A stretch of 64,000 bases of DNA from Paecilomyces variotii. Taxonomy: Eukaryota. Below are positions 4,601 to 63,530 of the stretch, one piece after another (within the stretch, counting starts at the first letter, position 1; every line of letters starts with the position of its first letter). Position numbers and translations under genes: made by a program. The notes under the pieces were generated by a model. That model ran no database searches. It worked only from the letters and a program-made list of their open reading frames with translations, and had not been told where the DNA came from. Where the stretch lies: the NCBI GenBank assembly GCA_004022145.1, contig RCNU01000025.1, one strand, 5' to 3'.

Positions 4601-6014
4601 AGATTAGTTAAATAAAGTCTAAAAAGAAGTTTTTATATTTAAGTTCTTATTTTAACTAGCTTTATAATTATCTTTATTATTTTTTTAAAGAATATAAATA
4701 GCTTAATAATAAATATCTTTAAAATTATTAAAATCCTTAATTTAATAATACTAGCTAGTAATAAAACTTCTAAGAGATAAGGTAATCTTATTATATATCT
4801 TAGGTTAGTAATTATTAAGATAAATACCCGCTTCTTTTATTAGCCTTATAAACTTTATAAAAAAATTATTATATTTCTAGTATATCTTTATATATAGATT
4901 AGTAAATTAATATCTTATAGTCTATTATTAATTTAAGTTATAGAATATAGCTTAAAGATAATTAAATATTTCTTTAGCTATTTAAAAGAGAAGGTTTAAA
5001 TTTTTATAAAATCTTAAAAATATATAAATTATAGTCTTTTTATTTAGGCGGCTCTAAATATATATAATATAAAAATATTTACTTCTATAATAATTAATAT
5101 TTATTTTTAGCTTATTCTTAATCTATAATAGCTAATTATTAAATTTAAAATCCTTTCTATTAATAAAAAAGAGAAAGTTAAGTAATTTAATAGAATACTA
5201 AGGCTATTTATCTCTAAATCTTAAAATACTCTTATATTTAAGATAAAGGGCTATATTAATAAGAGCCTCTTTATATTCTTCTTATTCTTAAATAAGTTCT
5301 ATAACTTATCATTTTATCTCTATTATATAATATTTCTTTTAATAGATTTATTAAGTAAGATTATAATTATATTTAATTTTATATTAGTTTAAGTATTTAA
5401 TATATTTTAAGTTATTAACCTTTTTTAGAAGAGTAGTAATAATATAATATTATATATTCTAGATTTTAATAGGGTTTTCTTTAAGAAGCTTCTAAAACTT
5501 ATTCTAGAAGAGTTTAATTAATTTATTATCTTAATAGAATAAGATATAATAATTATTAGTTCTTTTTTTTAATTCTTAATTAAACTATATATTATAATCC
5601 TTAAGATTACCTTAAAGATATTTAGATTTATTAGTAAACTTTATTATAGTAAAGGCCTAATTTAAAATCTAGTATTTAATATTAAATAAGTTTTATAAGT
5701 AATAAAGTATACTTAAGTAAAAAACCTTATAAGAATAAAATAAAATAAGATAATAAAATAAGCTTAAAGTAATATTATACTTAAGCAGATTAAATTAGAT
5801 TTATTAAAACTCTAATCTAGTAAGGTAATATAATAAAGAACTTTAAACTAGAGAGAGAAAAAGAAAAGAATTTAAGAAAGAAATCTTAATTCTTTTATTT
5901 ATAGAATTCTTTATTTTTTAACTGCTTCTAAATAGTATAAGCAGTTAAGAGTTTTACTAGTTAATCTCTTGCTCTATCTTCTTACTAGGTAAATACTAAG
6001 TTAATGCTATAATA
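1700..6014 (-). mobile_element. Ty3/Gypsy family A copy 1 (5' LTR ~5728-6014, gag, protease, RT, RNase H, start of integrase), RIP-degraded
   Basis: The minus strand has a YLDD-like RT motif at ~2920-2940. 1700-5240 is colinear with the fragments of copy A2 (7085-7352, 7635-9802, 15083-15571, 37102-37727). LTR limits are inferred from termini only, as no second copy is in the window. Confidence 0.8.
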
Positions 6015-7634: not shown

Positions 7635-9802
7635 TTATCTATTAAAATAAACTTTTTAGTTAATATTAAAGCTAAAAGAATCTCTTATTTTATTAACTCT
7701 TTTTAAATCTATATATTTAAGATCTTAAGCTCTAGTAAACGCTAAGGTTAATATTAGTTTATTTATTTCTTTTATTAAGAGATATTCTCTTCTTATTAGA
7801 ATAAAATATTAACTAAAGTATTTAACTTTTTAAGGCAATATTAAATTAAGAAATAATAATATAATAAGAGCTTTACCTATTAAGCTTATTTTAAATTTAA
7901 TATTTTAATAATTATAAAGTATTTAAAAATATAATAATTTATTAAAATATTAAATAACTTATTTATCTATAACTCTATAAGCTCTATATATTATTCTTTA
8001 AGGGCTTATATAATTACTAAGAGCTTCTTATTATAAATTAAATAATTATATTTAATTAATACTATTATCTTTAAATAATAAGCTATTAAATATTAAGGGT
8101 TTTATTTATCTTTTTACTAAGTAAATATAGTAGCTATAATATTATTTAAAGCATTTATTTTAATATATATATTCTTATTAAAATTATAATTATATAAGAT
8201 TAATATTAATTAAAGGTATTTTTTTAATATTTTAAAAGCCTTATAGTATATTTAATTAAAATTAAATAGATAATTTTCTTTAATTAAATTTATTATTAGT
8301 CTTATAATATAACTATAGTCTTTAATAAATCTCCTATAAAAGTTATAGAAACTTAAGAATAAATAAACCTTATAGATTATTTTAAGCTATTCTTAATCTT
8401 AAATAATTATAACTTTCTTAAAATTAACTTTAATATCTTTTATACTAATAATAAAACTAAAATATTTTATTTATATAATATAGAACTTATACTTTTTAAT
8501 ATTAGCTTATAGACTAGCCTTTTATAGATAAGATAATATCTTTTTTATTTAATTTTTTATTTAAAGTTAGTATTTTTATTAATTATTAAAATAAATTAAA
8601 ATATTATTCAAATAAATATTTATATAATTATTAAATAGGTTAAAGAAGAGATTATTTATATAATATTAAAATATAGCTAATCTATTAGTAAGTCTAAAAA
8701 AATACTTAATATTTATAAATCTTATATTTTATATAGAAAATTATTAAAGCTTTTAAATTAAAGTTTATTTAAATTCTATAAAAAGCTTATTAAATATTTA
8801 GCTTTATAAAGATTTTAGCTTAATTAATTTTAGCTAAAGTTTTATTAATTAGTAATAAAAGATAATAATCTTTTTTTATAATAATATTTAAATAGTAATA
8901 ATTAATATAGAATTATAGTTTTCTATTTACTTTCTTTATAAAAAAAATAAATAAGGTAAAAAACTTCTAGCTAAATATAATAAAGTCTTTCTTTAAGTTA
9001 TTAATTAAATATACCTTTAGTATCTATAATTCTTCTAGTAATTATTTATAAAAAAGTTAATATCTTAAGGGAATTTTTCCTTTAAATTCTATTTTATAAT
9101 TATAGGGCTAGTAAAAAGGTAATTTATTTAATATTTACTTAAAAAAGATATTAGAGAAGTTTTTATAGACTATAAAAAATATTTATAAATTAGCTCTAGA
9201 AGTTCTTATTTTTTTTATATAATTAAAGACTTTTATCTAATAATTTTATTAATCTTATATAAGCTAATAGTAAAAACTTTTATATCTTTCTTATATAATA
9301 TTTATTAAAATCTCTTAGCTTCTATATATATAATATTTAATATTTTCTTTATATTTATTATTAAAGAATATAACTATAATTATTAAAGATAAAAGATTAA
9401 ATTAATCTCTTAACTTATATTATATTTTAGTTAAAGCTAATTAAGTATTAACTTATTTAATTTATAATAGCTAGTAATAGAAGAAATTCTCTTATTTTAA
9501 AATCTAAATCTATTTCTCTATTTATTAATCTCTTCTATTAATATTTTATTAATATTTAAGGTTAAGAAATAGCCTTATTAAATCCTTTTTTATAGTAATT
9601 AACTCTTATTAGAATTAATAAGTTTATAAATTATTCTATAGCTAAATTTATTATTAATTTTAAATATTTAAAAGAATAAACTCTTTAGCTATTTATTTTT
9701 ATTTAAAGATTAAATTATAATAATCTAGATTAATAATTAGTATAAAAAGGTTTAAATAAATTCTTTTATTAATCTTTAAGTTAGTAATAAATATATAGTC
9801 TA

Positions 9803-12800
9803 TATTATAAAATAGCAGTTAAGACTTTATATAACTATTATATTCTTATTATAATTAGATTAAAAGTTATATAATTATTATAATCTTACTATAATTAAAT
9901 TAAGGATTTAGAATTTATTCTTAAGCTCTCTTTTTTACTATTTTATTATCTTAAAGAATATATATTAATAATATAGCTTTATATCTATATTATAAGCTAA
10001 TATTCTTTTTTCTTAAATATTATATTTACTTAAGCTAATATAATAGTTTAGGGAATTTATTTAAACTTATTCTTTTTAACTAGTTATAAGCCTAAGTTAA
10101 TAAGAACTTAAGAAAATAATATAAAACTTTTTATTAAGATTATAGAATTTAAAATAATAACTATTAAATACTCTTATAAGAGAGATATTATAATAAGACT
10201 ACTTTAATACTTATTCTATAAATATTAAATCTAATAAGTATTAAAACTTATTAATAATTAGAGAATTAATTAAATTACTTTATATATAGATAAGAATATT
10301 CTCTATTAATAATTTTAATAATTAAAAAGAGAGACTAATTCTTACTCTTTCTAGAGAAAATTATAAAAAATAGTTTATTTATATAAAGAAATAGCTTATT
10401 AGTAAAGACTATTAAGATATTATTAAATATTAATAATAAAATAGTAATCTATTATAAGAGAAAAATAATATAATAATATAATATTAAATTATAAAATACT
10501 TATTTAAGAATAATTAAAATAAATATATTAAAGATATAACTATTAAAGCACTATAAAATTATTTTAAGAGATAATATAAGAAGACTTAGCCTGCTTAATA
10601 ATACTAACTTATTTAATTATTTATTAATTTTAAAATAATACTTAGATAAATTATTATTAATATATTAAGGTAATTATAATAAATAAAAAAGAAGATAATA
10701 GCTTATAATATTATTATATCTTTTTTAAATTAAATTTAAAGCTAAGATTTAATATCTATTCTCTAGTTTATTTAATAAATATACTATTATTAGAATAATA
10801 ATTAATACTTAAAAATATCTAGGAGTAAAAAATATTTTAGCTATTCTTAAGGAAGTAAAAGCTAAATTCTAAGCTTTTTTATTAAATATATTTTATATAA
10901 AAAAATAAAAACCTATTAAATACTATATATATAAAAAAAACTATTTTATTAAAAACTGCCTATAATAACTTATAGCTTAATAAGCTGCTTAAAATACTTA
11001 AAGATAGAGAAAGAAATCTTTAAAAAGCTTATCTCTATTTATAAATTAAAAATTAATAGAAATAATAATTAAGCTATTTTAAGAAATATAATTCTTAAAA
11101 AAAAAGATCTTAAAAAAGAAAATAAAAGGCTTATAAAATAAAGAAAATTTTTAATATTAAGTTATTATATTTAAAGCCTAATTTAATTATATTAAATAAT
11201 TAAGTCTCTTATAAAATAGCTTATCTCTTAAAAGATATTACTAATAAGAATTTATTTTAATAATATATAAATAATAATACTAGTTTATATATAATTAATA
11301 AAAACTATTATTTTAAAGGACTATTAATTTAAATTTAATTAAGATATATTTATATAGGCGAAGAGATCTTATATTTAGAATATATAGAAATAGCTATTTT
11401 AAGAGATAAAGATAAGAAGATATTAAAACTAGAGAATATATTACTTATATTAAATTTTAGATAAATCTCTTATTAATTAAGATATTCTGCTAATATTTAA
11501 ATATATGCAGATATTTTAATTAAAGAATAATATCTATATTAAATAAATTAAATAAGGTTATAATTTAAAGTATTATTAAATATAGAGTTTATATTATTAA
11601 AAAGATTTTCCTAGATTAAATATTAAAATTATAATATATATTATATATATTATTATCTGTTAAAAATGCCTTTAATACTACTATTATAAGCTAAAAGAAA
11701 GAATCTCTTTAAATTAAAGCTATTTAATTAGTTTCTTAGAATAAATCTAAAGAATCTTATTATAGTAAGAAAAAAGAATAAAAAAATATTAGCTATAATA
11801 TAAAAAGATTAGCTATCTTAAACTTAAAAAAGTAAGAAACTTATATAATTTAATTATATTAAAAAAGCCTATTAAAGTAGTAATAAACTATTAGTATATA
11901 ACTTATATTATAATTAATATTAAGAATAAAAGAAATATAACTAATATATAAAAGGCTAGTATTTTTTAAACTTATTTATATAGATATATATAATTAAATG
12001 CTAGAGTTTAAAGATAAATATATTTACTTTTTAATAGTTATAAATAATTATTTAAAAAAAATATAGATATTTTTTATAAAAGCTAAATCTAATATTACTC
12101 TTATCTTAAATAAATAGAAAAAAAAAGTTAAAATAATAATAGGCTTTAAAATTCTTAGTATATAATTAGATAATATATTAAAACTTAAAAATTTTTTAAG
12201 ATTTAGAGAAAGAATTTTAGCATTTATTATTAGCTAATAGTTTTATATATATTAATTTAGAATAAAGCTATAAAATAAACCTATTAAATTATTAAAAAAG
12301 GAATAAAAGCTATATTTAAAAATTTAAATCTTCAATTTAAGCTATAAGTAGAGGCTACTTAAGCTAATATATATATTAAAAATAGAGTATTAAATAAATT
12401 AATAATTAATAGTATTTAAATAATTTTAAAGAAAGCCTTTATTAAAATTAAATTATTAATTAATTATCTATAAGTATAAAGATATTAAATAGTTTTATAT
12501 ATAAATCTAGAATTTTTATTATAAGGTATATAAAGAGATAAATTAATAAATTAAGATAAGATTTATATTTTTATAAAGTATATTAAGAGAATAAATAAAT
12601 AATAAAAAGTTTAAGCCTTAAATATATAAAAGATTATTAAAACCTATTAGATTAAATTCTTTAAAAATAAATTAAGTAATAATTTAAATCTAAGAATTCT
12701 CTAAAGATTAATATTAAATATAATATTAATAAGAAATTTAAGAGATTAGCTAGTAATTTAGCTTATTGCTTTATCTTTTCTTATTAGATTAAATATATAT

Positions 12801-15082
12801 ATATATATTCTTAAATAAAAAAAGATAATAATAATAATTAAAAGGAGAATTATAAAAATTTTTTAATATTCCTTTAAATAAAAAATAAAGCTTTCTAATA
12901 AAAAAATAAAAGATTTTTTTATAATAAAATAAAGAAATAAGAGAAATATTATTCTTATTTAAATAATTTAAATAATTATAAAGATTTATAAATAATATTC
13001 TTATTTTAGCTAAATAGATAAGTTATATCTTATATAAAAATCTTATATATAATAAAGTATAAAAGGGAGAAATATAAGTTAATAAAAAATAAGTATAAGT
13101 TTAAGCTATTTAAGGCAATGCTTATATTAAATCTCTTAACCTTAGGTATTAATATAAACTAAGAGAAGTATATAAAATAAGCCTTAATAGCAATATATAT
13201 AATAAAGGAATATATTTTAATTCTAAATTTATATTATATTATAATTAATAACTTAATTTAAATTAAGTTATAATAAAGTATATTTTAAAATAAAATAAAT
13301 ATACTTTAAATAAATAATACTTTTAAAATAGTTATATTATTATTAGGGGCTAATATTATAATTAGCTATTAAGTATTAGCTATAAAATATAATTTAAATA
13401 ACTTTCTTTAAAAACTTAAAATATACTTAATTACTTAAAGATTTATTTAGAAATATAATATTAATTTTAAGTATATCTTTATTTCTATCTTATATTATAA
13501 TATATTATAGATTTTTTTTAGCTATTATTATAATAGAAGATTATAAGTATTATATAATAAATATTAATAATATTTTTATAGAGTTAATATTAAAAAAAGA
13601 GATTTATATAATAGTTTTATTAAGAATAAATATATTATTAGAGATAATATTTAAAGTCCTTTAATCTTTATATAGCTTAAAACAGGTAATAAAAGATTAG
13701 AATTAGATTTATATAAAGATATTCTAGATAATAGATTTTATATAAACTAATATTAATCTATACTTATTATAGCACCTAGAGAAAGAGATTTTAATCTTAA
13801 TATATATTAATAATATTTTAATTAGTATAAAATAAATAAAGAATATTAACTAATTTAAATAGTAGTTTAAAATAATATATAAAATAAAGGATTTAAGAGA
13901 AGTAAAAAAGATCTTTAATATATAAATTATTTAAAATAAGAAAGACTAAATATTAATAATAGATTAATCTTATTATATTAAAGAACTCTTATTAAAATAT
14001 AAAATAAGTAAAAAAAGATATATTTAGTTAATATCCTATTAAATAGATATAATTATTTAAAGCTATTTAGCCTTTAAGATAAAAGAGTAAATTAAAGAGA
14101 GTATTAGAGAATTATTAATAGCCTTATTTATTTAATAATCTTAATAAGACTAGATATTATATTTACAGTTAGTAAATTAAATTAATACTTATTAAATTTA
14201 TTTAAAAGATACTTTAAAGTATTAAAATCCTTAATAAAATATTTTTAATTAAGTATATATCTTAGTCTTAAGTTTAATATAAATAAGAACTAGTAACTTA
14301 TTAAATACTTAGATTTTAATTATATAATAAATAAATCTAACTAGATATTAATTTTAAAGAATATTTTTACTTTAATTAATTATTTAATAAGCTAATTAAA
14401 TAAAAAATAAAAGTTTATTATAATCTTAACTATAGAAGTAATATATATAGCTATATATTAAGCTATAAAATAATCTTAATAATTAGCCCTTTTTTTAAGA
14501 GATATAGAATATAAATATTATATTAGTTTAAATAAGTTTAAACTAATAATAAAAAAAGAATAAATCTTTATTATAAGCTCTTTAGTTAAAGTCTTTAAGA
14601 ATAATTAAATATTATTATTATTAGTTAAAAATGCCTATATTTATAAAAGATTAAAATATATTAATATTATATATTACTATATATAAGACTTATATTAAAA
14701 AAATAAAATTAATATAAAGTTTATTTAAATATAAGATATAATAATAAATAGCTTTATTAAGCTACTATTAAAGATAAACTTCTTAAGATTTTTAAATTAG
14801 TTAAAATTAACTAATATAATAAATTTAAATTAAGAAGAAGTATTATAAAATAGCAGTTAGAACTTTATATAACTATTATAATCTTATTATAATTAAATTA
14901 AAGATTTAAAAGAATTTATTCTTAAGCTTCTCTTTTTACTATTTTATTATTTTAAAAAATATATATTAATAATATAGCTTTATATCTATACTATAAGCTA
15001 ATATTCTTTCTCCTTAAATATTATACCTACTTAAGCTAGTATAATAATCTAGAGAACTTATTTAAACCTATTCTTTTTAACT
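9803..15082 (+). mobile_element. Full-length Ty1/Copia element 1, RIP-degraded
   Basis: LTRs 9803-10081 and 14841-15082. PBS agttataagcc (RIPed ggttatgagcc) follows the 5' LTR and a purine tract precedes the 3' LTR. Domain order is integrase (~12160) - RT YVDD (~13800) - RNase H KHIDxxYH (~14650). TSD gtcta/atata (imperfect). Confidence 0.9.
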
Positions 15083-16814
15083 ATATATTTATTTTTTAAT
15101 TATATAATTATAGCTATTAATAAATATAGATTAGCTTAAAAGTTTTAAAAAAGTATTTAAGAATTAAGTAATTAATAAAACTAATAAGCTATTAAGAAAA
15201 TAAAGCTTATTTATTCTAAAATCTAGTAAAGTAAAGAGCTTAATATTATATTTATTCTTATAAATTAAGCTAAGTTTAATAAAATAATTATTACTTAAAA
15301 GGTAACTAAGATTAATCTTTATTAATTCTTTATTAACTCTTAAATTAAGACTTCTTTTTCTAAGTTCTATTTATTCTTTTTTTTTCTTAATCTTTAAATT
15401 CTTAATATTTATTATTACTTTTTTTAGTAAGTAATTAATAATAAAATACCTCTTTATTTTATAAAAAAAGCACTTCTCTTTTTTTATAAGAGTCTTATAG
15501 TTAATAATTAAGAATTTAATATTAATTTTAGAGATAAATAAATTATTACTAGATTAATTAAATAAGATTTAAGTTAAAAAGAATAGATTTAGATAGAATT
15601 CTCTAGACTATTTAATTAACTTAAAGGGCTAATAATACTTAAGGAAAAAGAGTATTAGTGCATATAGTAGATATAAAGTATATATATATATAAATTCTTA
15701 GTTAAGGCAATAGATTTTAAATAGAGCTTAAAAATAATTTCTTTAAATTACTTAATTTTATTAAAATAAAATTATTCTTAAAAATTTTTTTAAAATAAAA
15801 TTTTTATTATATTAAAACTTATTAGTTCTAACTATTATTTTATAATACTCTTTCTTAGTTTAAATTTATTAAGTTAGTTAATCTTAGTTAATTTAAGAAT
15901 TTTAAGAAGTTTATCTTTAATAATAGTTTAATAAAACTATCTATTATTATATTCTATATTTTAATAAACTTAATATTAATTCTATTCTTTTAATATAAAT
16001 TATATATATAGTAGTATATAATATTAATATATTTTAATCTTTTATAAATATAGGTATCTCTAATTAATAATAGTAATATTTAATTATTCTTATAGATTTT
16101 AACTAGAGAATTAATAATAAAAGCTTGCTTTTTTCTTATTATTAGCTTAAATTTATTTAGATTAATATAGTATCTATATTCTATATCTCTTAAAAAAAGG
16201 GCTAATTATTAAGACTATTTTATAATTTAATATATAGCTATATATTTAGCCTCTATAATTAAAATTATAATAAACTTTTACTTTTTATTTAATTAGCTTA
16301 TTAAATTACTAGCTAAAATAAAAATATTCTTTAAGATTAATATTTAATTAGTCTTATTTATTATATAATCTTAATTTAAATATTTAATAAGTCGCTAGTC
16401 TTAGTTTATATTAAACTTAAGACTAAGGTATATAATTAATTATAAATATCTTATAAAAGACTTTAATATCTTAAAATACTTTTTAAATAAATCTAATAAA
16501 TATTAATTTAATCTATCTATTATAAATATAATATTTAGTTTTATTAAAATTATTAAGTAAATTAAGCTATTAATAATCTTTTAATATTTTCTCTAATTTA
16601 TTTTTTTATTTTAAGGGTTAAATAGTTTTAAAGAGTTATATTTATTTAATAAGATATTAATTAAATATACTTTCTCTTTACTTATTCTATATTATAATAA
16701 AAGTTTTTTAATATAATAAGATTAGTCTATTATTAATATTTAATCCTTCTTATTTTAAATAACTTAAATATTAAAAATCTTCTTTACTTTTTTTAAGTCC
16801 TTTATTTTATATAT

Positions 16815-19800
16815 TATTACAGGAAACCTGTAACTGTATTATGTAATAATATTATATAGTCGGAGCTATAGTCGGCCCATTCCCTTAATTATATTATATA
16901 TCTAGATTAATACTTCTCTATTTCTTAGCATTATATATACTACAGTCCTATTTATATAGTATTAAGTTATCTTATAATACTTCTATTCTCTATACTTAAT
17001 TATGCCTTATAGTTTAAGTTCTTATATAGCTTTTTATACTATTCTTCTTATTAATGCCTTTCTTATATTAAATAATAATTAATATAGGGAAATGCTATTA
17101 TGCAGGGGATCTAATTATTAAGAAGTAATATTAAGAATAAGAGCTTAAGAGCTGGGGTATTAAATTGACCCTAAATCCTATTATAAAGGAAAAGGGGAAT
17201 TATTAAAGTCCTTATATATAATATATAGAGAAGCTAGTCTAGCAGATTATTCTAGATATAAGCTATAAAAAGCCTCCCTATATTAGCTTCTAAAGGGAAT
17301 AGTCCCTATAAAAAAATTACTCTTAAGTAATAAATCTTCTTATTATCTATTTAGTATTATATCTTATTAAAAGCAGTTAAGTATATTTACTATTAATAGG
17401 GAGTAGCTTATAAGAAATAGAAAAAAGCTAATTAGGAAAGGCGTCTTTTATAGGAGATTATTATATTAATATTCTATCTAGAGTAAAAAAGGGAGATAGA
17501 ATCTTCTTTAATAGTAGAATTAAGATAATTATTCTTAATAAATAATAAGAGGGATAATACTTAGGAATTAAAACCTCTGCTTAATTAAAATACCCCTACT
17601 TTATTAATTTCTTAAACTCCTTCCCTTTCTTTAAATAGATAAGAATTATATGCTATAGCTAATCTAATTATGCCTTAAGTATTTATCCCTATGCTATTAC
17701 TAAATATGCTAGAAGCTCCCTATTTTAATAAAAAGAATACTACTAACTTTTTAAATTATTTTATAAACTTATATATAAACTATAGACTTAAAGGAAAGAA
17801 TAATAAAATCTTCTATTAAGTGCTAAAATACTATAATATTTAGATTAATAATTAGATAAAGATAACTATATCTTATATTAAGCAGGATTAAGAAGCTTTC
17901 TATAAGGAAATTAAAAAGGAGTTTTATAAAAAGGATACTAAATAATAGGTATATATTTGCAGGTATCTAGAGGTATATAAAAATAAGAAGCATGCTTAGA
18001 ATAATAGAGTAAAGGATTATATCTAAGAATATATAAGTATTTCTAAGATAATCTTTAAAAAAGATTATTTAGATAAATATATTTGCAATATCTAATTTTT
18101 TTAAGAATTATTTAAAAAGCTTAACAGGAAGGTAATAAAAAAGCTTAAGATAAACTTTAAAAAATTAAAGAAAGTAAAATTTAGTAAGGTAAAATAAAAG
18201 ATTTTAGAGGTTATTATTATAAATAACTGTATTAATAGACTCTTTAAATTTAAAAAAGAAGATAGGGACCTAAATATTATAATAAAAGAATATTAGTCTC
18301 TAGTTAAATTAAAGCTATAATAGTTAAATCTTAACTATTAGCTAAGCTAATTAGAGATTATATATAAGGAAGTAAATAAGATAATTAATAATCTGGCTAC
18401 TTAATTTAAAGCTCTATCTCTGCCTATTAAAGCTCTTATATTATAAAAAAATAGATAGAATTAGTAAGAATACTATATTATTATAAAAGTAAATATTATT
18501 ATAATTATATTCTACTAATAATAAGCAGAATTTATCTATTATTATTATAAAAAACTTAGTAAAAAGATTAATAATTATTCTAATTATCTTAAGAATATCT
18601 GCAAGGGATATATTTATTAATATCTAGAAATAATGTATATTTATTTTAGTAAAGCTAGGGATAAAAATATTAAAGTTCTTTTTTAGTATAGTAAAAAGCT
18701 AATTAAAATTATATAAAAAACTGCTCAGAATAGTAAGCCTATAATTTAAGCTTATATCTAGTTTTAGTCTGCTCTAATTAGCTTAATCCCTAAATAGAAT
18801 AATAAGATTAATAATATAGATAAGGAATAGGAAGATAATAATAAAGATAATATTATAGCCTATTAGGTAAATATAGGATTTATTATACTAAGATTAACTT
18901 CTAAGGCTCTTTAGACTAATACTTATCCTGCTATTAAAAGCTATTATATTAAGATATAGTCTTCTTAAAAACTACCTAAGATAACTATAAAAAGTCTAAT
19001 AAATAATATCTATATAGAAGATATAATTATAGAGGATATAAAGCTTATTCTTATATAATCTAATAGACTAAAAGCTAAGCTAAATATAAGAAGTATACCT
19101 AATAGGCTATCTTATAAGCTTAAAAACTTAATAAATACTAATGCTCTTTTAAATAAGGTTCTTAATTAGCCTATCTCCAATTTAACTATATAAGAATTAC
19201 TTAATAGCTGTCTTATTATTTATTATACCTTCTTTTAAGTATTACTTTTAGATACTAAAGTTATATTCTTTCCCGAACTTAATATAAAGGGAATAAATAT
19301 TAAAATAAGAGTTATAAGCTAAAGACTTCTTAGAGAATATATATTGCTAATATATAATAAGGAAACTATATATATAACTAAAATATTAAAGACTATAGTA
19401 GTAATTAATAGAAAGAGAGTATATATTATTTTTAATATAGATTCCGAAATTAATATAATAAGCCTAGGGCTTATTTAATGTCTTAGCCTACCTATAATTC
19501 TAGGTCTAAACTATTTAATAGTAGTCTAAATATAGACTATTATAAACTGCGTAGGGTATTGCGAAAATATACCTATTATTATTAGTTATATTATTATATA
19601 ATCCCCTATTCTTATTATATCTATAGGCGATGCAGATTATATTCTTAAATATCCCTAGTAAATAAAGTTAAAATTTATAATAAAAACTCTTAATAATAGA
19701 GCTATTCTCTATTATATTTATAGAGAGACTTAAGATAATTGCTTTAAATTTATTAGGTATAGATTAACTAACTAAAATATTAAGATAATAAAGGATATTT

Positions 19801-33400: not shown

Positions 33401-36400
33401 ACCTTAATATCTTTTATATTATATATTTTAATAATATTCTAGTATATAATATAACTTATTTTAAATATATTTAATATATCTGCGCTATCCTGCAGAAGCT
33501 ATATAAAATAGGCCTATATATAAAAATCTAGAAGTATAAGTTTATTATCTCTAAGACTAAGTTTTTAAATATTATTATTGGCTGAGATTATATTAAAATA
33601 GACTTAGATAAGGTAAAAATAATTGCTAAATAAAAGACCCCGATCTATATAATTAATATATAAGCCTTTATTAGGTTTAGCAACTTTTATTATTAGTTTA
33701 TTTATAACTTTTTTAAGATAATTATACTGCTTATAAATTTAACCTAAAAGGAAGTTCCCTTTAATTAAATACTTACCTATTAGTCTAGTTTTAAAGCCCT
33801 AAAAGAAGTATTTATTTAAGCCCTAATCCTGAAGTTATTTAACTAGACCTATAAGGTTATAATTAAAACTAACTTATCTAATTATATATTAGCTAGAGTT
33901 ATATCTTAATATAATAATAAAGGAATCCTATATCTTATTATATTTTTCTTAAAGAAGCTCTCTGCTATAAAGTATAATTATAAGATTTATAATAAAGAAT
34001 TATTAATAATTGTCTGCTGCTTTAAAAAATAGCGCCTTAAGTTTAAAGATATACTATTGCCGATTAAAGTTATTATAAACTATTATAATCTAGAATATTT
34101 TATATTAACTAAGCTGTTAAACTAATAATAGGCCTATTAATCTAAGTTCCTATCTTAATTTAACTTTTAAATTATATATTATTTTAGAAAATAAGAAATA
34201 AAGCCTAACGCCCTAATTAGGAGGTCAGAAAATCTCCTTAAAGAAGGGGATAAATAGTTATAGTATTAAAGCTAGATAGTCTTAAAAAAAGAGAACCTTA
34301 ACTTATAGATTTAAAGATCCCTAAAACTAGAAGCTATTATTAAGAATTAAATAATAAGGTATATTTACTTTACTAATTTAATAGCTTAAGAGGTTAAAAA
34401 TCTTGTTAAACTTATAGGAATACCTACTTAACCTGCTCTAAAAAATTAATCTATTTAGCCTAGAGAAGCTATTTAATCTATCCTGCCGCCCGACTAGTTT
34501 ATTAAAATTATTTAACCTATTAAAGAGATAATTTAATCTATTAAAGAGACTATTTAGCTTATTAAAAAAATAGTCCTATTTATTAAGTAAGACTAGTTAA
34601 GTTCTTCTGCTATACCTAATAAACTAAAGTATTTATTAGATATTAAAAATCTGCTAGATATAGCTTACTTATCTAATAACTTAATATAGTCTATCTTATA
34701 AGCCTTAGATTATAAAGCTAACTATTATCTTAAGATTATATTAGCTAACTACTAATAAAAAGAAAGATATTTATATTATAAAGACCGCCTATATATTCTT
34801 AATTATAATAAGCTAAGAGCCTACCTATTATAAGAATATTATAATAAATATATATTTAGATACTCTAGAAAATATAAGCTTTATAACCTAATCTTATAAA
34901 AGTATTATTAGCTAAATATATATTAATATATAGATTATTAGACCTAGAATTGCTATATTTACTATTATATTATACTCTTAAATAAAGGCTATTAAGAAGT
35001 CTTATACTAGCTTTCTATTTTTAAATATTTTTAGTAAGATATCTTAATAGATTTTATTATTAAACTTATATTTTGCTAAGATTATAATATTATATTAGTT
35101 ACTATAGATTAACTTATAAAAATAAGATATTTTATTCTCTATTAAGCTATTTATAATGCTAAAAAAGTAATATAATTATATATTTATTATATATAAAAGC
35201 TTTATAGGCTATTAAAAACTATAATATCTAACTAAGATCCTTAATTTATTACTGCTTTCTAGAAATATCTAATCTAATACTTAGATATTATAAACTTACT
35301 ATTTACTATCTATTACTCTAAGACTAATAGTTAGACTAAAAAGATAAATACTATCCTAGAATAATATCTATACGCCTATATTAGTTATTTATAAGATAAC
35401 TAGATTAACTAGCTATCTCTAACTGAGTTTATATTAAACTCTTACTATTCTAAGACTATTAAAATATTGCCCTTTTTTGCTAATTATAAGTTCTATCTAT
35501 ATATAGAATTTAAGCCTGTTTAATTTATAAACTAGCCTATTACTAAAAATGCTAAAGCCTTTACTAAAAAAATATAAGATATTATAGATTATATCTATAC
35601 TTAGATTTATATTGCCTAAGCCTATTATAAAAAGTAGATTAATTACTGCTAAACTTTAGCTTACTACTATTATATAAAATAGTCTATTTAATTAAATACT
35701 TAAAATATCTATATCTAACGCTTCTAGAAGAAACTTAACTAAAAGAATCTTAGCCTATTTTATATTATTAAGATTATTAGCCTATATACTTACTAGCTTA
35801 ACTTACCTGCCTTAATATATATTTATCCTATATTTAATATTAGCTTACTTTATCTTATTATTAAAGATCCTGTGCCTAGATAAAGATAACCTTTATTATT
35901 GCCTATTAAAGTTAATAGCCTTAAAAAATAAATTATTAAAGATATTTTAAACTCCTAATAAGAATATTATAAATATAAAAGCCCCTAATTATAATATACT
36001 ATTAAGTAGTTAGGTTATAATAATCTAATTAAAAAACCTATATATTATCTATAGTATATTTAGGAGATTATTATAAACTTCTATTATTACTACCTAAATA
36101 AGCTAAAGCCTAAAGATAATCTTAATAAAGCTTAACCTTAAGGAGGGGAGTATTATTATAGTATTAGTATAAGGGATAGAATAATTAACCTGCTGGCTAA
36201 TACTTACCTAACCTAAAAAGAGTAAGGATTATACTCTTTTAAATTATATAAGGAATTATATAATCTTATAAAGATATCTTCAGCATATAGCTTAATCTGA
36301 ATTTAAGCTTCTTAAGTTATATCTTATTTACTAAGCCTGCCTGTAATAGCTTATTCTAGTCTGAATTAGCTAGATAGAGATCTTATAGCTAGTCCTAGTA

Positions 36401-57360: not shown

Positions 57361-57582
57361 TATTCTGTGCTTTGCCCCTTTTTAAGGGAAAATAAGCACT
57401 TATATTAATATAATTAGAATTAGTTTTTCTTGGCTGAGAGCCTAAGCGGCCGAAAGAATTTCAGATAAAATTTATAAATTTTTGGATTTAGTGCTCTATA
57501 AAGGCGCTAGCATATCCTGATTAATCTCTATAATAGACTTTAAATCCTTATTCCTAGCGGGAGGGAGGTATAGAGTTATTAT

Positions 57583-57848
57583 ATTTAAAAAGTTGTGATA
57601 GAAGTAATAAATAAGTGTTAGCCTTGCATATAGGTCTGTTTACCGGGATATTACTGTATTTAAAAAGTTGTGATAGAAGTGGCAAATAAGCATTAGCCTT
57701 GCATGTGGGTCTGTTTACCGGGATGTTACTGTATTTGAAAGGTTGTGATAGAAGTGGCAAATAAGTGTTGGCCTTGCATGTGGGTCTGTTTACCGGGATA
57801 TTATTGTACTGTATATGGAAAGTTGTAATAGAAGTAACAAATAAGCGC
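57583..57848. repeat. ~3.5 tandem copies of a 75-bp unit upstream of merA
   Basis: Units start at 57583, 57658, 57733 and 57813 (the last offset by a 5-bp insertion). Core aagttgtgatagaagtggcaaataag...gccttgcatgtgggtctgtttaccgggat. Confidence 0.95.
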
Positions 57849-58211
57849 TATAGTAGTAATTGACCAAGCCTGTATCGGAGGGGGTAAGAAAGTTTTTCAT
57901 TGGTGATTATATCAGAGTTTCTGAGGTCCAGGCTCTGGGATTGAGAAGTTGCCCGCATGTATGTGCCGTTACTTAATATAGTACAGCAATTGCAGTAGTT
58001 AAAGTTTAACGGGTACGTCATCTTTACAACGCGTATATTACCGACCCAGGAATCTGGGTATGGTTAGTATAGAAATCGATGACTTAAAGACCTTGCAATA
58101 ACTCGTCTTTTCCTCTTGCCCATTCCTCATAGTGTGCGGAGTTTCCCGTATATACTTGGACGCTTTACCCCATAGCTGCAATTCGTTGGCAAGCTTGGGA
58201 CCGTCAGAACC

Positions 58212-59868
58212 ATGGCCACAGCTGAATTTGCTGCCGCTGAAATAGGTGGCTCGCAATGCTGTAATCTTGGAGATCATAATCAGCGTTGCCGGATAGTCAT
58301 CATCGGTCCGTCTCCAGATTCCCCCGGAATTATATGTACTTGGCCATCTGACATAGTGCAGGAGGGGGTTCAGCGGCATTCGCTGCCGCTGCCGCGGCCG
58401 CACCGTTCGCAGCCTCTGTTAAGATTGTGAACGAAGGCTTACCCATGGGCGGCACATGTGTGAATGTTGGCTGCGGTGAGTAAAGATTGGTGATAAATAC
58501 GTATTTTTGTGTTTATATTGCTAATGTGAATTATCTTGACCAGTTCCTTCGAAATTCCTCATCCAAGCGGCTCATATAAGCAGCCCCCACAATTCCAGTC
58601 CGCCATATCATGGGTTTTCGAACGTCTCTGAGAGAGTCAGCGACTTCGCTGCGTTGACGGCACAGAATCGTCAGCTTGTGGAAGATCTCCGTGAGAAGAA
58701 GTATGCCAATGTTATTGCCGGATTAAATAATGTTGAGTATGTCCAGGGGCTGGGAAGGATTCTCAGGAAAGGCGATTATTTCTCTATCGCTGTCGATTGC
58801 GGCAGCACTGAGGAAACGCCTTCCCGGGAACTACTTGCGGATCGAGTGATCTTAGCAACAGGTGTGCGCACCAGTCTTCCGAAGCAGTTGCTCCCGGATT
58901 TGGAGAAAGTGCCTTATCTCACAAACGAAACCGCTTATTTCGAGCCTATCCTACCAGAATCTCTCATCGTGCTCGGTGGAGGCTATGTTGCGGTGGAAGC
59001 GGCCCAGATGTTCGCACGACTTGGCTCTCGGGTGACGCTTCTGCAGCGATCGTCACACATTCTCTCCGACACTGATGAAGATATAGGGCTGGCTTTAGCT
59101 GGCTATTTGCGAGAGGAAGGGATAGACGTGGTTGTGGGCCTCGAGATATTGTCTGCAACTCTTGATGATGGCAAGGTTATGGTAACGGCGAGACTGACCA
59201 ACGGAAAGCCCTGGACTTTTAAAGCATCAAAGATCTTCGTTGCCACTGGTCGCCGTGCGAAGACGGAAAACGTGTCAGAGGTACCGCTGCGGCTGTCTGA
59301 TTCGCCGCATGGCGGATTTGTTGTTTCAGATACCTTACAGACTTCCATTTCCGGGGTTTATGCCGCAGGGGACTGTGTTGCTGGCTCGCCGCAATATGTG
59401 TACACGGCAGCAGCGGAAGGCAAACTTGCAGCGCTCAATGCTCTGGCCTCGTTTAATGGCCAAAAGGAGTCGCCGATCGATTATTCAGTCGTCCCTTGGG
59501 TTGTTTTTTCATCTCCAGCTGTCGCTGGAGTCGGTCTCGATGTCCATGAAGCCCGAGCCAAAGGCATCGACGCCGAAACTTCCATTGTCCCCCTCTCCCT
59601 CCTTCCTCGGGCCATCGTGCAACAGGAAACACGTGGGTTTGTGACCTTGATTCGGAATAAGCAGGACGACACCATTATTGGAGCGCGTATCTTGGCAGAA
59701 GAAGGCGGAGAGCTCGCTATGGAAGCGTCCCTTTGTGTTCAACATAAGATCAAGGCCCAGGAACTGGCGGGGATGTTCCATCCGTATTTGACGTGGAATG
59801 AAGCCTGGAAATTAGCAGCTTTGGGATTTTCAAAGGACGTCAACCAGCTTAGCTGTTGTGCAACATAG
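58212..59868 (+). CDS. merA: Mercuric reductase (MerA, class I pyridine nucleotide-disulfide oxidoreductase); 3 exons 58212-58305, 58362-58475, 58544-59868; 510 aa
   Basis: Introns 58306-58361 (gtccgt..ctgac..cag) and 58476-58543 (gtgagt..gctaat..cag). Splicing restores the FAD motif [14 protein letters not shown] and the redox dithiol [13 protein letters not shown]. Also present: NADPH motif [26 protein letters not shown] and the MerA-diagnostic C-terminus [13 protein letters not shown]. Confidence 0.95.
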
Positions 59869-59919
59869 CCGCGCATGCCACGGCTCTAACTAGCTGTCTT
59901 GTCTAGAATATGGAATTTT

Positions 59920-60254
59920 ATTACTTAGAAGAGTCGGAGATCTCCGAAGAGGGATGCGAGGGTCGGTAGGCAGTCCGGAAAAGCTCATCGTGGAGTGCAG
60001 AGTACCCGATATAGTTTTCAGTGGTGCAGCATTGATTTAGCCCCTTCTATGGAGCATGAGCAGGATCAGTCACGTAAGAGGGCTCCGCCAAGGTGCAGTG
60101 GGTGTGGGGAGACAGGGCATAAGATCAATCGTTGTAAGAATCGCTAGTTTGAGACAAATAGATACGTTTTTGGTAGAGATATCCTGATTCAAAAATTCCT
60201 GATGGTGGTGGGTGTCTGGTTTAACCGGGTGTCCGGCTTAACCGGGAATTACGG
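59920..60254 (+). mobile_element. 3' end of a second Fot1/pogo transposon (C-terminal zinc knuckle + TIR), truncated
   Basis: RKRAPPRCSGCGETGHKINRCKNR* ends at 60147, followed by ttaaccgggtgtccggcttaaccgggaattacgg|ta. Left limit approximate. Confidence 0.85.
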
Positions 60255-60443: not shown

Positions 60444-60822
60444 ATGCCTCTATGCAGCGTACGAACTGCTGAGAGGAATTTTTCCCCCTTGTAAGTCAAA
60501 AGGATTTGTGCCTTTACCTATTAATTCTTTGACTCACCTTGAGACAGATGGTTCTCGGTGTCCCTAGGCACAGGGATGGCTTCTATGCTTCTGAGCCAGC
60601 TACCTTATAACACCCGTGGCGTCCAATTGGCATCTCTTGCATTGTTCGTCTTAAACATTCTGGTTTTCGTTACCATATTGGCTATCAGTATGTGTCGGTA
60701 CATTCTCTACCTACAAGCATTACGGGGCGTCATCGAAGACCGTGAGCAAATACTGTCCTTGCCACTTATACCCATGGCATATTCAACGTTAATAAATATG
60801 ATAACATTTGTGCTTGTTCCCT
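60444..60822 (+). pseudogene. 5' fragment of an Ssu1/Mae1-like TDT (SLAC1) family transporter, truncated by a LINE fragment
   Basis: ATG 60444 and intron 60491-60547 (gtaagt..cag). The spliced product RNFSPLWFSVSLGTGMASMLLSQLPYN...FVLNILVF...RYILY...PMAYSTLINMITFVLVP matches the N-terminal TM helices of Ssu1-type proteins. Sequence switches to LINE DNA at ~60822. Confidence 0.85.
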
Positions 60823-62810
60823 TATGTATTTCTCGTGTAGTAATAGGTGGAAATTTAATTGGTTCAGGGTATTAGAAAGAAGCAGTGTCGGAGAGATTAG
60901 CCAGCGGTAGTTGTGGGAAAAAGGCCGCCTAAAAGGCTTTTGCTTTCTGATCGATTATCTCTATAAGTTTGCCCGGTCTTTCAGGATCTTGGACTTTTAA
61001 TAAGGGGGTGAGACCTTTCTTATATACTTTATTGCGGTTTCTTGCCTATTTAGTAAGACGCCATATATCCCGCGGGCTATCTTTAATAACCTGTTAGACT
61101 CGGCGCTGGTGCGCTCTAGATAGTACCTTTTTAATAAGGCATACCTTATTGTTGCGTGCCTAGGTATATCGCATCTAATTATAGGGGTCTTTTATCTTTA
61201 TATATTTATATTGTAGGCGACAGACTTCCTAAATGGCGGCCTTGCATTTATTATTAAAATCTAGGTTTAACTATGCTGATAGGTTCGCCTATAGGGTAGA
61301 GAAGTTAATTGCTAATTAAACGATATCTAGCAGCATCTAGCATTAATACTTAATTTATATTAGGTCTGCTTGGGAGAGATCTCTTGCTTATAGCCCTTCT
61401 TCAATTTTCTGAATAAGCTTAGCGTTGTTAGTTACCTTCTTATTTCTCCATTTCTCCTATATATGTATTGGCGTTTTAATATTAAGTACTATTCTGACAG
61501 GGAAATAGTTAGATAAATATTTAATATTATCCGTTTACTTGCAGCGGATTAGTCTATTAAAGAGACTTAAACTAATAAAGATAAGTTTAATAACTGAAGA
61601 CTAATTGTTTTAAGTCTAGGTGGCTTTTCCTTTCTTAGTAATTAAGTTAAGATTATGCTTATCTATAATCTCCAGCAGTTGTTCAGCTTTATTGTTAACC
61701 CTAGTGCCTACTCCTCCCTATACTAGGTAATATATATTTATATCTCCTACTACTATATGCTCGGCTAAGAGTCGCTTAGCCAGTTTACTTTTTAGCTGAG
61801 CTAAAGTATTGCTGCCAGATCTATTATATATATTATACATAAATAGGTCTATCTAGTCCTTGCCTATATAAGCCTTTCTAAGCTTTAATAGCTGGTAATC
61901 CCGCGAGATGACCTGGCATAACCAAGTAGCAGGGTCGATCTTTTTTGACACGAAGAGGCATATACTAGGTTGAGGAGGATCTGGGTCTGGACCTTGTCCC
62001 TGGCCTTGGTTCTGTCCCCTCAGGGTTTGCTTTGCTGGGTAGAGTAGCTGGAATGTTACTGCTGCTAGTTGATGGGTTATATGTTGCTCTTTATTTTTCC
62101 ACAGTTCCTATACGGCAATAACATCTATCTTTAGGACTTTCTTGTCCCTAAGAAATGTGGCTATTACCAGCTATGCTTTGTGTGCGTTGTAGTGAATATT
62201 TTAAACGACTTTATTAGTGAAGTTGTTTGTCATTGCTCTGCTTGCTGGTCTTATGCTATACTTCATTATTTGGGTCTTCAATTATAGGTGTATCAGTTAT
62301 GATCGCGGGAGGGGAGGATCTGATAAGTATTGCCCGTTGTTGGTTATACTTAAGAGTGATGAGTTTCCGGTATTCTGGGCTCTCTGGGTCTAGCTCCTCT
62401 AGATTAGGCTCTGGTATAGTGTCAATATTGTTTATCGTTGTAATATCATTGGTAAACTGGGTGAGCTCATCTTTGAAATTATCCTGTTGTAGGATGTTAT
62501 ATAGGAGGGCACTCTGTGTGAGCTGGATGTTGAACCAGTTACTGTCATCCAGTTGTTCGTCCATGGTATCCTCCGGCTCTCCTACTCGGCGTTTCTTAGA
62601 CACTATGTTGTCTTGTTCGACTCTCTGAGAAGAAGCAGCCTGGGATCTTGTTGACCGCTGCCTTGCCCGAACCACCGAGGATGTGGGTGCTTGTTCCTTG
62701 GGCCTAGTTCTGGAACCCTTCGGGCGACCGGGGCCCCTTCTCGGCTTTGTTGGCTCAACCTGCACTTGAGGAGCCCTCTCCGACCTCTCTGGTTCGAGTT
62801 CCAGATCTAT
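60823..62810 (-). mobile_element. Tad1-like LINE fragment (ORF1 C-terminus + ORF2 AP-endonuclease), truncated at both ends, partly RIPed
   Basis: Minus strand: DVIAVQE (~62120), RVCLFVSKKID (~61950), HIVVGDMNAHHPAWGG-like (~61710-61760), FFPQLP (~60915); ends just before the RT domain. The ORF1 tail is ORF 62256-62861 with AT-hook-like PRRGPGRPKGS. Confidence 0.85.
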
Positions 62811-62867
62811 TATGATCGGTGGTGGGGAGCCAGCAAGATGATACACCAAACTCAAGAACAAAAAGCC

Positions 62868-63530
62868 ATGGTTGGTCCTTATGTCGCCGTGCTAGTAACT
62901 TCAGTGATACGTCGTTCCCCTACCCCCGACAGTCTGTCGGGCTCCGACACCACTTCCAGAAACAAGTTTTCATATATCGCCCCGGTCATTGTGATCTCTG
63001 TTGGACTAACTGCGATACTTCTCTTGAATATTTATTTTCGTCGTCGTTCTTCTCAGCGGGTGACGCCTGTTAATACCCTTCCTGCAAACCAACAACAAAG
63101 CCGCGAGACGAATACAGCAAAAGCACTTCTAGATACCTTTCCCATTGTTAAGTTCAGAGGCCCGCATGATAGCAGTCTGGAAATGGGCGATTTGGCCGCC
63201 GTTTCTCGTGAAAGCAGAGAATTAAGGGCACCAGCTAATCAAGGGCCGCAGCCGTGGGAAACGTCAGAACAAAATACTACGGTGGATGAAAGAGACCTTG
63301 CTCAAGTACATCGGAAAACTTCAAATGTATCACCCACACTTACTCTCGCTTATGCGACGGCAAATGTTGCTTGCTCAATCTGTACCGAGAACTTTACCGA
63401 CGGCCAGAATGTGAGAATGTTGCCGTGTGGTCATCAGTTCCATCCACGGTGTATTGACCCATGGCTTCTCAATCGGTCATATACATGTTCTATGTGCCGC
63501 ATTGATCTCAGTCGGTCTGATCTTGTCTAG
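62868..63530 (+). CDS. Transmembrane RING-H2 E3 ubiquitin ligase-like protein (~220 aa)
   Basis: TM segment YIAPVIVISVGLTAILLLNIYF followed by RRRS, then a C-terminal C3H2C3 RING CSICTENF...LPCGHQFHPRCIDPWL...CSMC. The start is taken as the gccATG at 62868. Confidence 0.85.
   Translation: MVGPYVAVLVTSVIRRSPTPDSLSGSDTTSRNKFSYIAPVIVISVGLTAILLLNIYFRRRSSQRVTPVNTLPANQQQSRETNTAKALLDTFPIVKFRGPHDSSLEMGDLAAVSRESRELRAPANQGPQPWETSEQNTTVDERDLAQVHRKTSNVSPTLTLAYATANVACSICTENFTDGQNVRMLPCGHQFHPRCIDPWLLNRSYTCSMCRIDLSRSDLV

Follow-up and report, generated by a model that had tools for sequence, protein, structure and literature searches.

How has a mercuric reductase gene of bacterial type come to be spliced, maintained and passed on by fungi? 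The question is raised by a 64,000-nucleotide stretch of Paecilomyces variotii DNA (GenBank assembly GCA_004022145.1, contig RCNU01000025.1), hereafter the window, which contains a three-exon gene, merA, at positions 58212-59868 of the plus strand. We consider it highly probable that this gene encodes a cytosolic mercuric reductase (MerA), dependent on reduced nicotinamide adenine dinucleotide phosphate (NADPH) and flavin adenine dinucleotide (FAD), which would convert Hg(II) into volatile Hg(0), that the gene originates from bacteria, and that it subsequently gained introns and spread among fungi.

Removal of two introns, of 56 and 68 nt, joins 510 codons that specify a 510-residue protein of MerA type. 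The joined exons reproduce database protein P0003 (509 residues) exactly, only the final Thr510 being missing from the latter, and exon 1 is identical to its residues 1-31. No in-frame ATG lies between the preceding stop and the start codon at 58212, which has an A at -3 and a G at +4; reading of the sequence reveals no ATG within the leader (58133-58211). The end of exon 1 is set by an RNA joint linking 58304/58305 to 58361/58362, and exon 3 lies inside a 442-codon open frame (58540-59868). Intron 1 interrupts the FAD-binding GxGxxA motif (VII-G/GGSAAF), and intron 2 falls within the Val70 codon of the C-V-P-S-K segment. The original prediction, made from the DNA letters alone, had proposed these coordinates, this strand and a set of MerA motifs including the terminal LSCCA, all of which are correct by our reading of the sequence and its frames.

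Twenty sequencing runs contain the merA stretch, and contigs of four of them (X1, X2, X10 and X15) were aligned to the window. A single 1972-nt contig of X1 covers 58058-58304, 58361-58474 and 58543-60153, and a 1944-nt contig of X10 covers 58133-58304, 58361-58474 and 58543-60199; in both, precisely the 56 and 68 nt of the two introns, bounded by GT..AG, are missing, as is expected of cDNA. Intron 1 is also removed in X2, a run recorded as metatranscriptomic RNA. X15, a DNA-like run bearing the same organism label as X10, yields an unbroken contig (58132-60200) that keeps both introns and has neither joint. If the spliced transcript starts at 58133, an RNA run should contain a fraction of about 0.84 of all 31-letter words in 58000-60000; X1 to X14 hold 0.81-0.85 of them, in agreement with spliced RNA, contigs having been aligned for three of these fourteen runs. 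With GT..AG borders, a branch-point-like CTRAY sequence and removal in RNA-type contigs, both introns have the properties of spliceosomal introns. The two canonical introns first proposed from the sequence, one of them splitting C-V-P-S-K, are thus borne out at the RNA level (Table 1).

Table 1. Parts of the merA transcription unit, in window coordinates. Contig ends are not proven transcript starts or poly(A) sites.
Feature	Positions	Strand	Content	Basis
5' untranslated leader (approximate start)	58133..58211	+		RNA-type contigs start at 58133 (X10), 58136 (X2) and 58058 (X1)
Exon 1	58212..58305	+	Start codon, Cys-rich tail (C16, C17, C26), first FAD-motif half RIVIIG	Translation
Intron 1	58306..58361	+	56 nt, phase 1, GTCCGT...CTGAC...CAG	
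Exon 2	58362..58475	+	GGSAAFAAA (FAD motif) to GGTCVNVGC, redox-active Cys64 and Cys69	Translation, P0003, alignments
Intron 2	58476..58543	+	68 nt, phase 1, GTGAGT...CTAAT...CAG	
Exon 3	58544..59868	+	VPSK... to LSCCAT and TAG; NADPH and dimerisation domains, Tyr123, Tyr484, Cys507, Cys508	MerA matches, Pfam
3' untranslated region (minimum extent)	59869..60153	+		Spliced contigs reach 60153 (X1), at least 60199 (X10) and 60065 (X2)

These joints dispose of the idea that merA results from bacterial contamination or from faulty assembly. One might suspect as much of a gene from a bacterial protein family, a 396-residue copy of which (P0125, GAA3296691.1) is filed under Dactylosporangium vinaceum. 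We give this idea practically no credence: two spliceosomal introns are removed in RNA, which rules it out, the flanks bear the marks of repeat-induced point mutation (RIP) and hold retrotransposon relics, and related loci have fungal neighbours. As for the Dactylosporangium entry, it has no more than the length of exon 3 and matches the fungal protein at 98% identity, so that it is most likely the bacterial assembly that was contaminated by fungal DNA.

Family scores, structure scores and a tree all place the protein with MerA, as had been anticipated, and not with dihydrolipoamide dehydrogenase or glutathione reductase. Full-length P0003 obtains 415.9 bits on the NCBIfam MerA model TIGR02053 versus 276.8 on lipoamide dehydrogenase, and exon 3 alone 345.3 versus 222.5. 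Against solved structures, the full-length protein scores 288.7 and 286.7 bits with MerA (5x1y and 1zk7, respectively) versus 188.8 with the best dihydrolipoamide dehydrogenase, the corresponding values for exon 3 alone being 243.8 (Tn501 MerA, 1zk7) and 146.9. FAD, NAD(P)H and dimerisation domains are present (Pfam Pyr_redox_2, 179.2 bits; Pyr_redox, 69.7; Pyr_redox_dim, 78.6; FAD motif IIGGGSAAF). Dihydrolipoamide dehydrogenase and glutathione reductase share with fungal MerA the class I pyridine nucleotide-disulfide oxidoreductase fold and the CxxxxC motif, but they score about 100-140 bits lower, lack the C-terminal cysteine pair and form a separate outgroup in the tree. The best solved-structure matches, MerA of Tn501/Tn21 (1zk7, 1zx9) and of Lysinibacillus (5x1y), have both the fold family and the catalytic residues in common with the fungal protein. 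They differ from it in identity (only 36-38% for Tn21-type MerAs), in having an NmerA domain and in belonging to a merRTPCAD operon, with import via MerT and MerP.

The residues that characterise MerA are retained. Of the redox pair C64-V-N-V-G-C69, the second cysteine never varies among 100 aligned MerA-type sequences, and C64 is found in at least 90% of them. The C-terminal pair C507/C508 (LSCCAT), aligned to positions 464/465 of the 1zk7 chain, and Y123 (KKYANV), aligned to position 100, are likewise invariant in all 100 sequences; Y484 (HPYLT), aligned to position 441, is invariant in alignments of 11 and 12 rows and present in less than 90% of the 100-row set. With an offset of 94, the aligned 1zk7 positions presumably correspond to Y194, Y535 and C558/C559 in Tn501 numbering. 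If the enzyme works like its homologue Tn501 MerA, complexes of Hg(II) with thiols would be captured by Cys507 and Cys508 of one subunit and passed to Cys64 and Cys69 near the FAD of the other, with Tyr123 and Tyr484 as likely ligands; electrons from NADPH would then reduce Hg(II) to Hg(0).

NmerA is optional for MerA, and many MerAs lack it. P0003 has no match to PF00403, the NmerA/HMA domain, and its N-terminal tail is only 26 residues long, with three cysteines (Table 1). An HMA-like motif occurs in 29 of 97 representatives ending in a C-terminal CC, and an N-terminal Cys-Cys tail (M-x-x-CC) in 15 of the same 97, in 6 of the 14 nearest bacterial matches and in 8 of 13 full-length fungal proteins. 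The enzyme of the window has only a short Cys-Cys tail, resembling those of its nearest bacterial relatives, and such a tail may be a minimal substitute for NmerA.

Where did this MerA come from? We built a tree of 130 rows. Its fungal part consists of 13 full-length and 7 exon-3-only proteins selected manually. To these were added 14 bacterial sequences from among the 48 nearest matches, two plasmid MerAs and two sets of representatives, namely the first 60 of the 97 with a terminal CC and all 34 lacking one; representatives shorter than 430 residues were excluded beforehand. All 20 fungal rows fall into one clade (support 100 in the Shimodaira-Hasegawa-like approximate likelihood ratio test, SH-aLRT; stem length 0.5), which lies within the MerAs carrying a C-terminal CC, the outgroup splitting off with a support of 99. 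The sister of the fungal clade is a metagenome protein, P0162, from a 3.7-kb contig (support 97), and the surrounding group, deep within MerA, holds sequences from Verrucomicrobiota, Acidobacteriota and Simkania. When the full library was searched at the level of 50%-identity clusters, the fungal clade was represented by one cluster only (P0022), and P0157, which ranked next, stood at 49%. The best plasmid match, from pSn of Simkania negevensis, is 45.6% identical, and with one genome per prokaryote species the best among the matches listed are 44-46% identical (Planctomycetota, Caldithrix and Ignavibacteria-like). Among the matches listed, no prokaryote sequence exceeds 49-50% identity to fungal MerA. 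The nested position of the fungal clade supports the horizontal origin from bacteria put forward in the original prediction, and an ancestor of this clade would accordingly have acquired merA from a bacterium.

The nearest relatives are bacterial MerAs without NmerA, at 45-49% identity (P0075, P0082 and P0099 from Verrucomicrobiota/Acidobacteriota, and the Simkania pSn fusion). Like the fungal protein, they have the same core and a C-terminal SCCA but no HMA domain, and an N-terminal CC is present in many of them. They differ in being intronless, in having MerR-type regulators adjacent, in carrying GDV...FVY where fungal MerA has GDC..SPQYVY, and in lacking an insert of about 10 residues near residues 146-160 that, in the alignment, is specific to the fungal clade. 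The Simkania pSn gene (L002:3995-6112) and P0157 are MerA-MerB fusions of 705/706 residues, with PF03243 at residues 580-700. This fusion cluster, the top-scoring bacterial match to the fungal protein, has an MMSSCC N-terminal tail and an adjacent MerR-family gene.

A monophyletic fungal clade with shared introns, and with no bacterial sequence closer than about 50% among the matches listed, could also be expected of an ancient eukaryotic gene, inherited vertically and lost from most fungi. We find this very improbable, since the clade is embedded deeply among bacterial MerAs instead of standing next to them, and since the protein is 95-100% identical across three fungal classes as against 75% to Rasamsonia, a relative within the Eurotiales.

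Acquisition from bacteria places the introns later, and their distribution agrees with this order of events. A metagenome scan gave 43 loci, of which 21 look fungal (L003-L020, L022, L029 and L040). Two of these were dropped from the intron map: L020, at 56% identity, lacks the anchor motifs, and L040 covers only residues 288-509. In all 19 fungal loci mapped, both introns occupy the identical codon and phase and have GT..AG ends, with lengths of 50-58 nt for intron 1 and 56-70 nt for intron 2; bacterial genes have neither. The 19 loci represent 17 distinct exon-3 sequences and about seven lineages at 63-68% identity to the query. Because they are common to all mapped lineages, the two short phase-1 introns were probably gained before these lineages split. 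This matches the earlier proposal of intron gain after acquisition. Many database proteins from prokaryote-style gene finders begin just before VPSKFL, as would fit the same intron 2. In one entry, P0032 from Pleopsidium flavum, precisely the place of intron 1 is taken by an additional 17 residues (VVIG-PFPHLLLEGHTLSVGP-GGGSAAF), which look like an in-frame intron read through by the annotation.

The merA clade is under purifying selection. The ratio of nonsynonymous to synonymous substitution rates (dN/dS) is 0.09-0.18 for fungal pairs with dS between 0.16 and 1.2, and noisier, from 0 to 0.67, for pairs with dS below 0.06. Once acquired and furnished with introns, merA would thus have been maintained by selection. 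The surroundings have fared differently. Bases 1-47800 form a block of about 48 kb with 12-23% G+C, RIP indices of 1.31-1.36 (TpA/ApT) and 0.10-0.33 ((CpA+TpG)/(ApC+GpT)), and relics of reverse transcriptase/RNase H at 33937-34230, 2221-2424 and 7997-8092; the segment 53501-58000 is likewise RIP-like. As merA stands between RIP-degraded sequence and a truncated SLAC1-like gene, and has no recognisable regulator, it might be taken for a recent passenger of a mobile element, still expressed but decaying and of no benefit to its host. We regard this as improbable: the frame is intact, the RIP indices of the gene itself are normal (0.55 and 1.45, respectively), the transcript is made and spliced in several runs, and the clade as a whole evolves with a dN/dS of about 0.1-0.2.

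How merA is distributed among fungi suggests that its history did not end with acquisition by a common ancestor. The protein is identical over 509 of 509 residues to a Penicillium rubens/Eurotiales entry, 99.8% identical to that of Aspergillus turcosus, 98.2% to both the P. chrysogenum protein and a partial one from Lecanicillium, 97.2% to that of A. niger and 95.3% to that of Pseudogymnoascus; identity to Rasamsonia, a fellow member of the Eurotiales, is only 74.9%. Identities of 95-100% thus span Eurotiomycetes, Leotiomycetes and Sordariomycetes, which conflicts with vertical descent and fits transfer from fungus to fungus. Nearly every word of the 2-kb stretch that can be expected from the type of library is also present under each of seven coded organism labels (A-G), one of which may be the source of the window itself. 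The sub-lineage present in the window would have spread very recently among unrelated fungi, probably by means of a mobile element.

Starships are a candidate class of vehicle; they are recognised by a captain (DUF3435), by auxiliary genes (DUF3723, FRE, PLP, NLR) or by terminal motifs on either side of the cargo. Of the 58 open reading frames (ORFs) of at least 60 residues in 47.5-64 kb, three have Pfam matches (merA, the SLAC1-type fragment and a RING-H2 ORF), and there is no captain or auxiliary-gene match among them. DUF3723 and ferric reductase (FRE) queries from the related locus L004 gave no match below E = 0.1 in the window, and the motif 'ACAACTAG' is absent from it, with 0.71 occurrences expected by chance. 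These negative results cover the window only, of which 48 kb are RIP-degraded and which is itself part of a contig. The 'accessory region' of the original prediction therefore stands in part: RIP-degraded surroundings and near-identical proteins in unrelated fungi speak for it, but no Starship hallmark was found in the window.

Partner genes as in bacterial mer operons were not found in the window, also as predicted. Searches (tblastn) of the whole window with MerR, MerT, MerP, MerC and MerB of pQBR57 and with the Simkania MerB domain gave a best E of 1.1, and a fungal MerB query from L004 found no match at E <= 10, although RIP-degraded relics could escape detection. The MerA of the window would thus function without merR, merT, merP or merB nearby. 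Regulation and Hg delivery may then follow a eukaryote-specific route, as the original prediction suggested. Other fungal loci do have partners. In L004, a MerB gene (4766-5428, minus strand; PF03243, 126.2 bits) lies head-to-head with merA, about 450 nt upstream, and an FRE gene (12062-13507) and a DUF3723 gene (15096-17471), which we take to be typical Starship auxiliary genes, lie no more than 10 kb from merA. MerA and MerB also bear consecutive locus tags at two loci of Exophiala xenobiotica and at one of Elasticomyces. Fungal MerB, unlike MerA, is nearest to actinobacterial sequences (40-46%). Ordinary neighbours surround merA in L003, L006, L009, L015 and L018, and transposon genes in L005.

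Several observations weigh against our interpretation. The TIGR02053 score of the protein lies below the curated cut-off of 454.45 bits, and its score on a second model, NF010311, is 379.7 for a cut-off of 600. All five fungal proteins tested fall short of the TIGR02053 cut-off (408-424 bits), whereas the two nearest bacterial proteins both pass it (520 and 540). The long fungal stem (0.5) could leave room for some functional shift. The N-terminal cysteine pair is not universal in fungi, exon 1 of L015 and of L016 being devoid of cysteine. On the RNA side, the sole X2 contig over intron 2 retains it, and the RNA status of X1 and X10 was guessed by a program, X2 being the only one of the four aligned runs to be recorded as RNA. 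Finally, no Starship hallmark gene was found in the window.

Could the fungal protein then be a MerA-derived enzyme with a changed substrate, such as another thiol-bound metal or a disulfide, that no longer serves mercury resistance? Sub-cut-off scores in five of five fungal proteins, the length of the stem, the fungal-specific insert and the absence of mer partner genes from the window would all be in keeping with such a shift. The NCBIfam MerA models were made for annotating prokaryotes, however, and MerA is still the top family by 139 bits; we read the low scores as a sign of divergence of the fungal proteins, not of exclusion from MerA. The residues that distinguish MerA (the C-terminal CC, both tyrosines and CxxxxC) are kept and under constraint, and in related rock fungi merA adjoins merB, which encodes an organomercury lyase, an arrangement that is sensible only for mercury. 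A changed substrate is therefore unlikely, and reduction of Hg(II) remains by far our preferred function for merA.

Both the gene and its origin from bacteria had been made public before; they are well confirmed rather than new. The database entry is 'mercuric reductase MerA, partial [Paecilomyces variotii]' (RWQ91212.1 / XP_028480857.1); its protein (509/509) and exon-intron model are identical to ours, and it differs in missing Thr510 and being marked partial. Identical or near-identical proteins are also on file for Penicillium rubens, P. chrysogenum, Aspergillus turcosus and A. niger, the entry shared by P. rubens and other Eurotiales having all 510 residues. In Urquhart et al. 2023 (PMC10104507), a single sentence presents merA and merB as cargo of Hephaestus-family Starships resulting from bacterial-to-fungal transfer, citing Chang et al. 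2020 for Penicillium sp. DC-F11. As described there, this cargo shares with the window merA the kind of gene, a host among the Eurotiales, the claimed origin and a mobile spread. Unlike it, the window shows no captain, DUF3723, FRE, 'ACAACTAG' motif or merB, whereas L004 has merB, FRE and DUF3723. P. variotii CBS 101075 is reported to lack Hephaestus itself in the available part of a preprint (Urquhart 2020), which makes no mention of mercury; if the window comes from a Hephaestus-lacking strain, merA resides in another element.

Fungal homologues of merA and merB are also named in the review literature (PMC12195606). The closest functional precedent is MIR of Metarhizium robertsii, for which Wu et al. 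2022 (PMC9704736) demonstrate Hg(II) reduction and a resistance phenotype. MIR is, like the window merA, a fungal MerA homologue; its homologues are described there as widespread in fungi, as opposed to the patchy distribution seen here, and the best 120 matches to the window protein include no Metarhizium protein among those named. The supplements of PMC10104507 and PMC9704736 have no mention of merA, merB, mercur, MAA_07932, Paecilomyces or Penicillium. We found no description of introns in fungal MerA or of this locus in the literature searched, although subscription papers (in particular Urquhart et al. 2022 in Current Biology and Chang et al. 2020) may contain one.

With annotation and transfer story both public, the gene by itself opens no new question. 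The present analysis adds RNA-based evidence of splicing, clade-wide conservation of the introns, purifying selection and 95-100% identity across three fungal classes. The case of merA shows cleanly how fungi have domesticated a resistance gene from bacteria, with introns, selection, operon-free expression and a later spread of near-identical copies. It may serve in teaching and as a marker for gene traffic between fungi, and the gene is a candidate for use in mercury bioremediation.

The start of the merA transcript has a counterpart elsewhere. A 52-nt stretch, 58132-58183, also begins a second, different contig in X10, X15 and X2. In X10 the second contig has a depth of 7705, in X2 the match has five mismatches, and X15 is the DNA-like run; the diverging part of these contigs is absent from the window, where the leader occurs once. 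The shared stretch looks like a promoter or leader duplicated before another gene. A more speculative scenario, which we put forward tentatively and hold to be doubtful, is that this merA copy resides in a small undescribed mobile unit that recently moved among the three classes, and that its leader (about 50-100 nt, promoter-proximal, 58132-58183) was duplicated before the second, equally abundant transcript. The two genes would then form a eukaryotic co-regulated module for mercury or thiol stress, independent of MerR, with the Cys-Cys tail replacing NmerA.

Further elements flank the gene. About 370 nt upstream of the start codon, in RIP-like sequence, lies a tandem repeat (57582-57845) of 3.5 copies of a 75-nt unit with 86% matches, perhaps an array with a regulatory role, perhaps what is left of a transposon. 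Within the 3' untranslated region of merA, a 72-codon frame (59929-60147) without a Pfam match ends in a motif resembling a CCHC zinc knuckle (CSGCGETGHKINRC) and may be a transposon or gag relic. Downstream, at 60543-60872, a 110-codon fragment corresponds to positions 6-95 of 331 of PF03595 (66.9 bits), a SLAC1/TehA (TDT)-type transporter; it is followed by degraded AT-rich sequence and is probably a pseudogene killed by RIP. The membrane-anchored RING-H2 ORF (62655-63527) has only two close clusters, at 100% and 87% identity, beyond which matches drop to about 40% or below across most of the ORF. Judging from these matches it would be a rare gene, and it lacks the range of named host species seen for merA. 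In L005, 6 kb from merA and beside the transposon genes, an ORF at 7973-8731 combines a bacterial-type Ada Zn-binding domain with an AraC helix-turn-helix.

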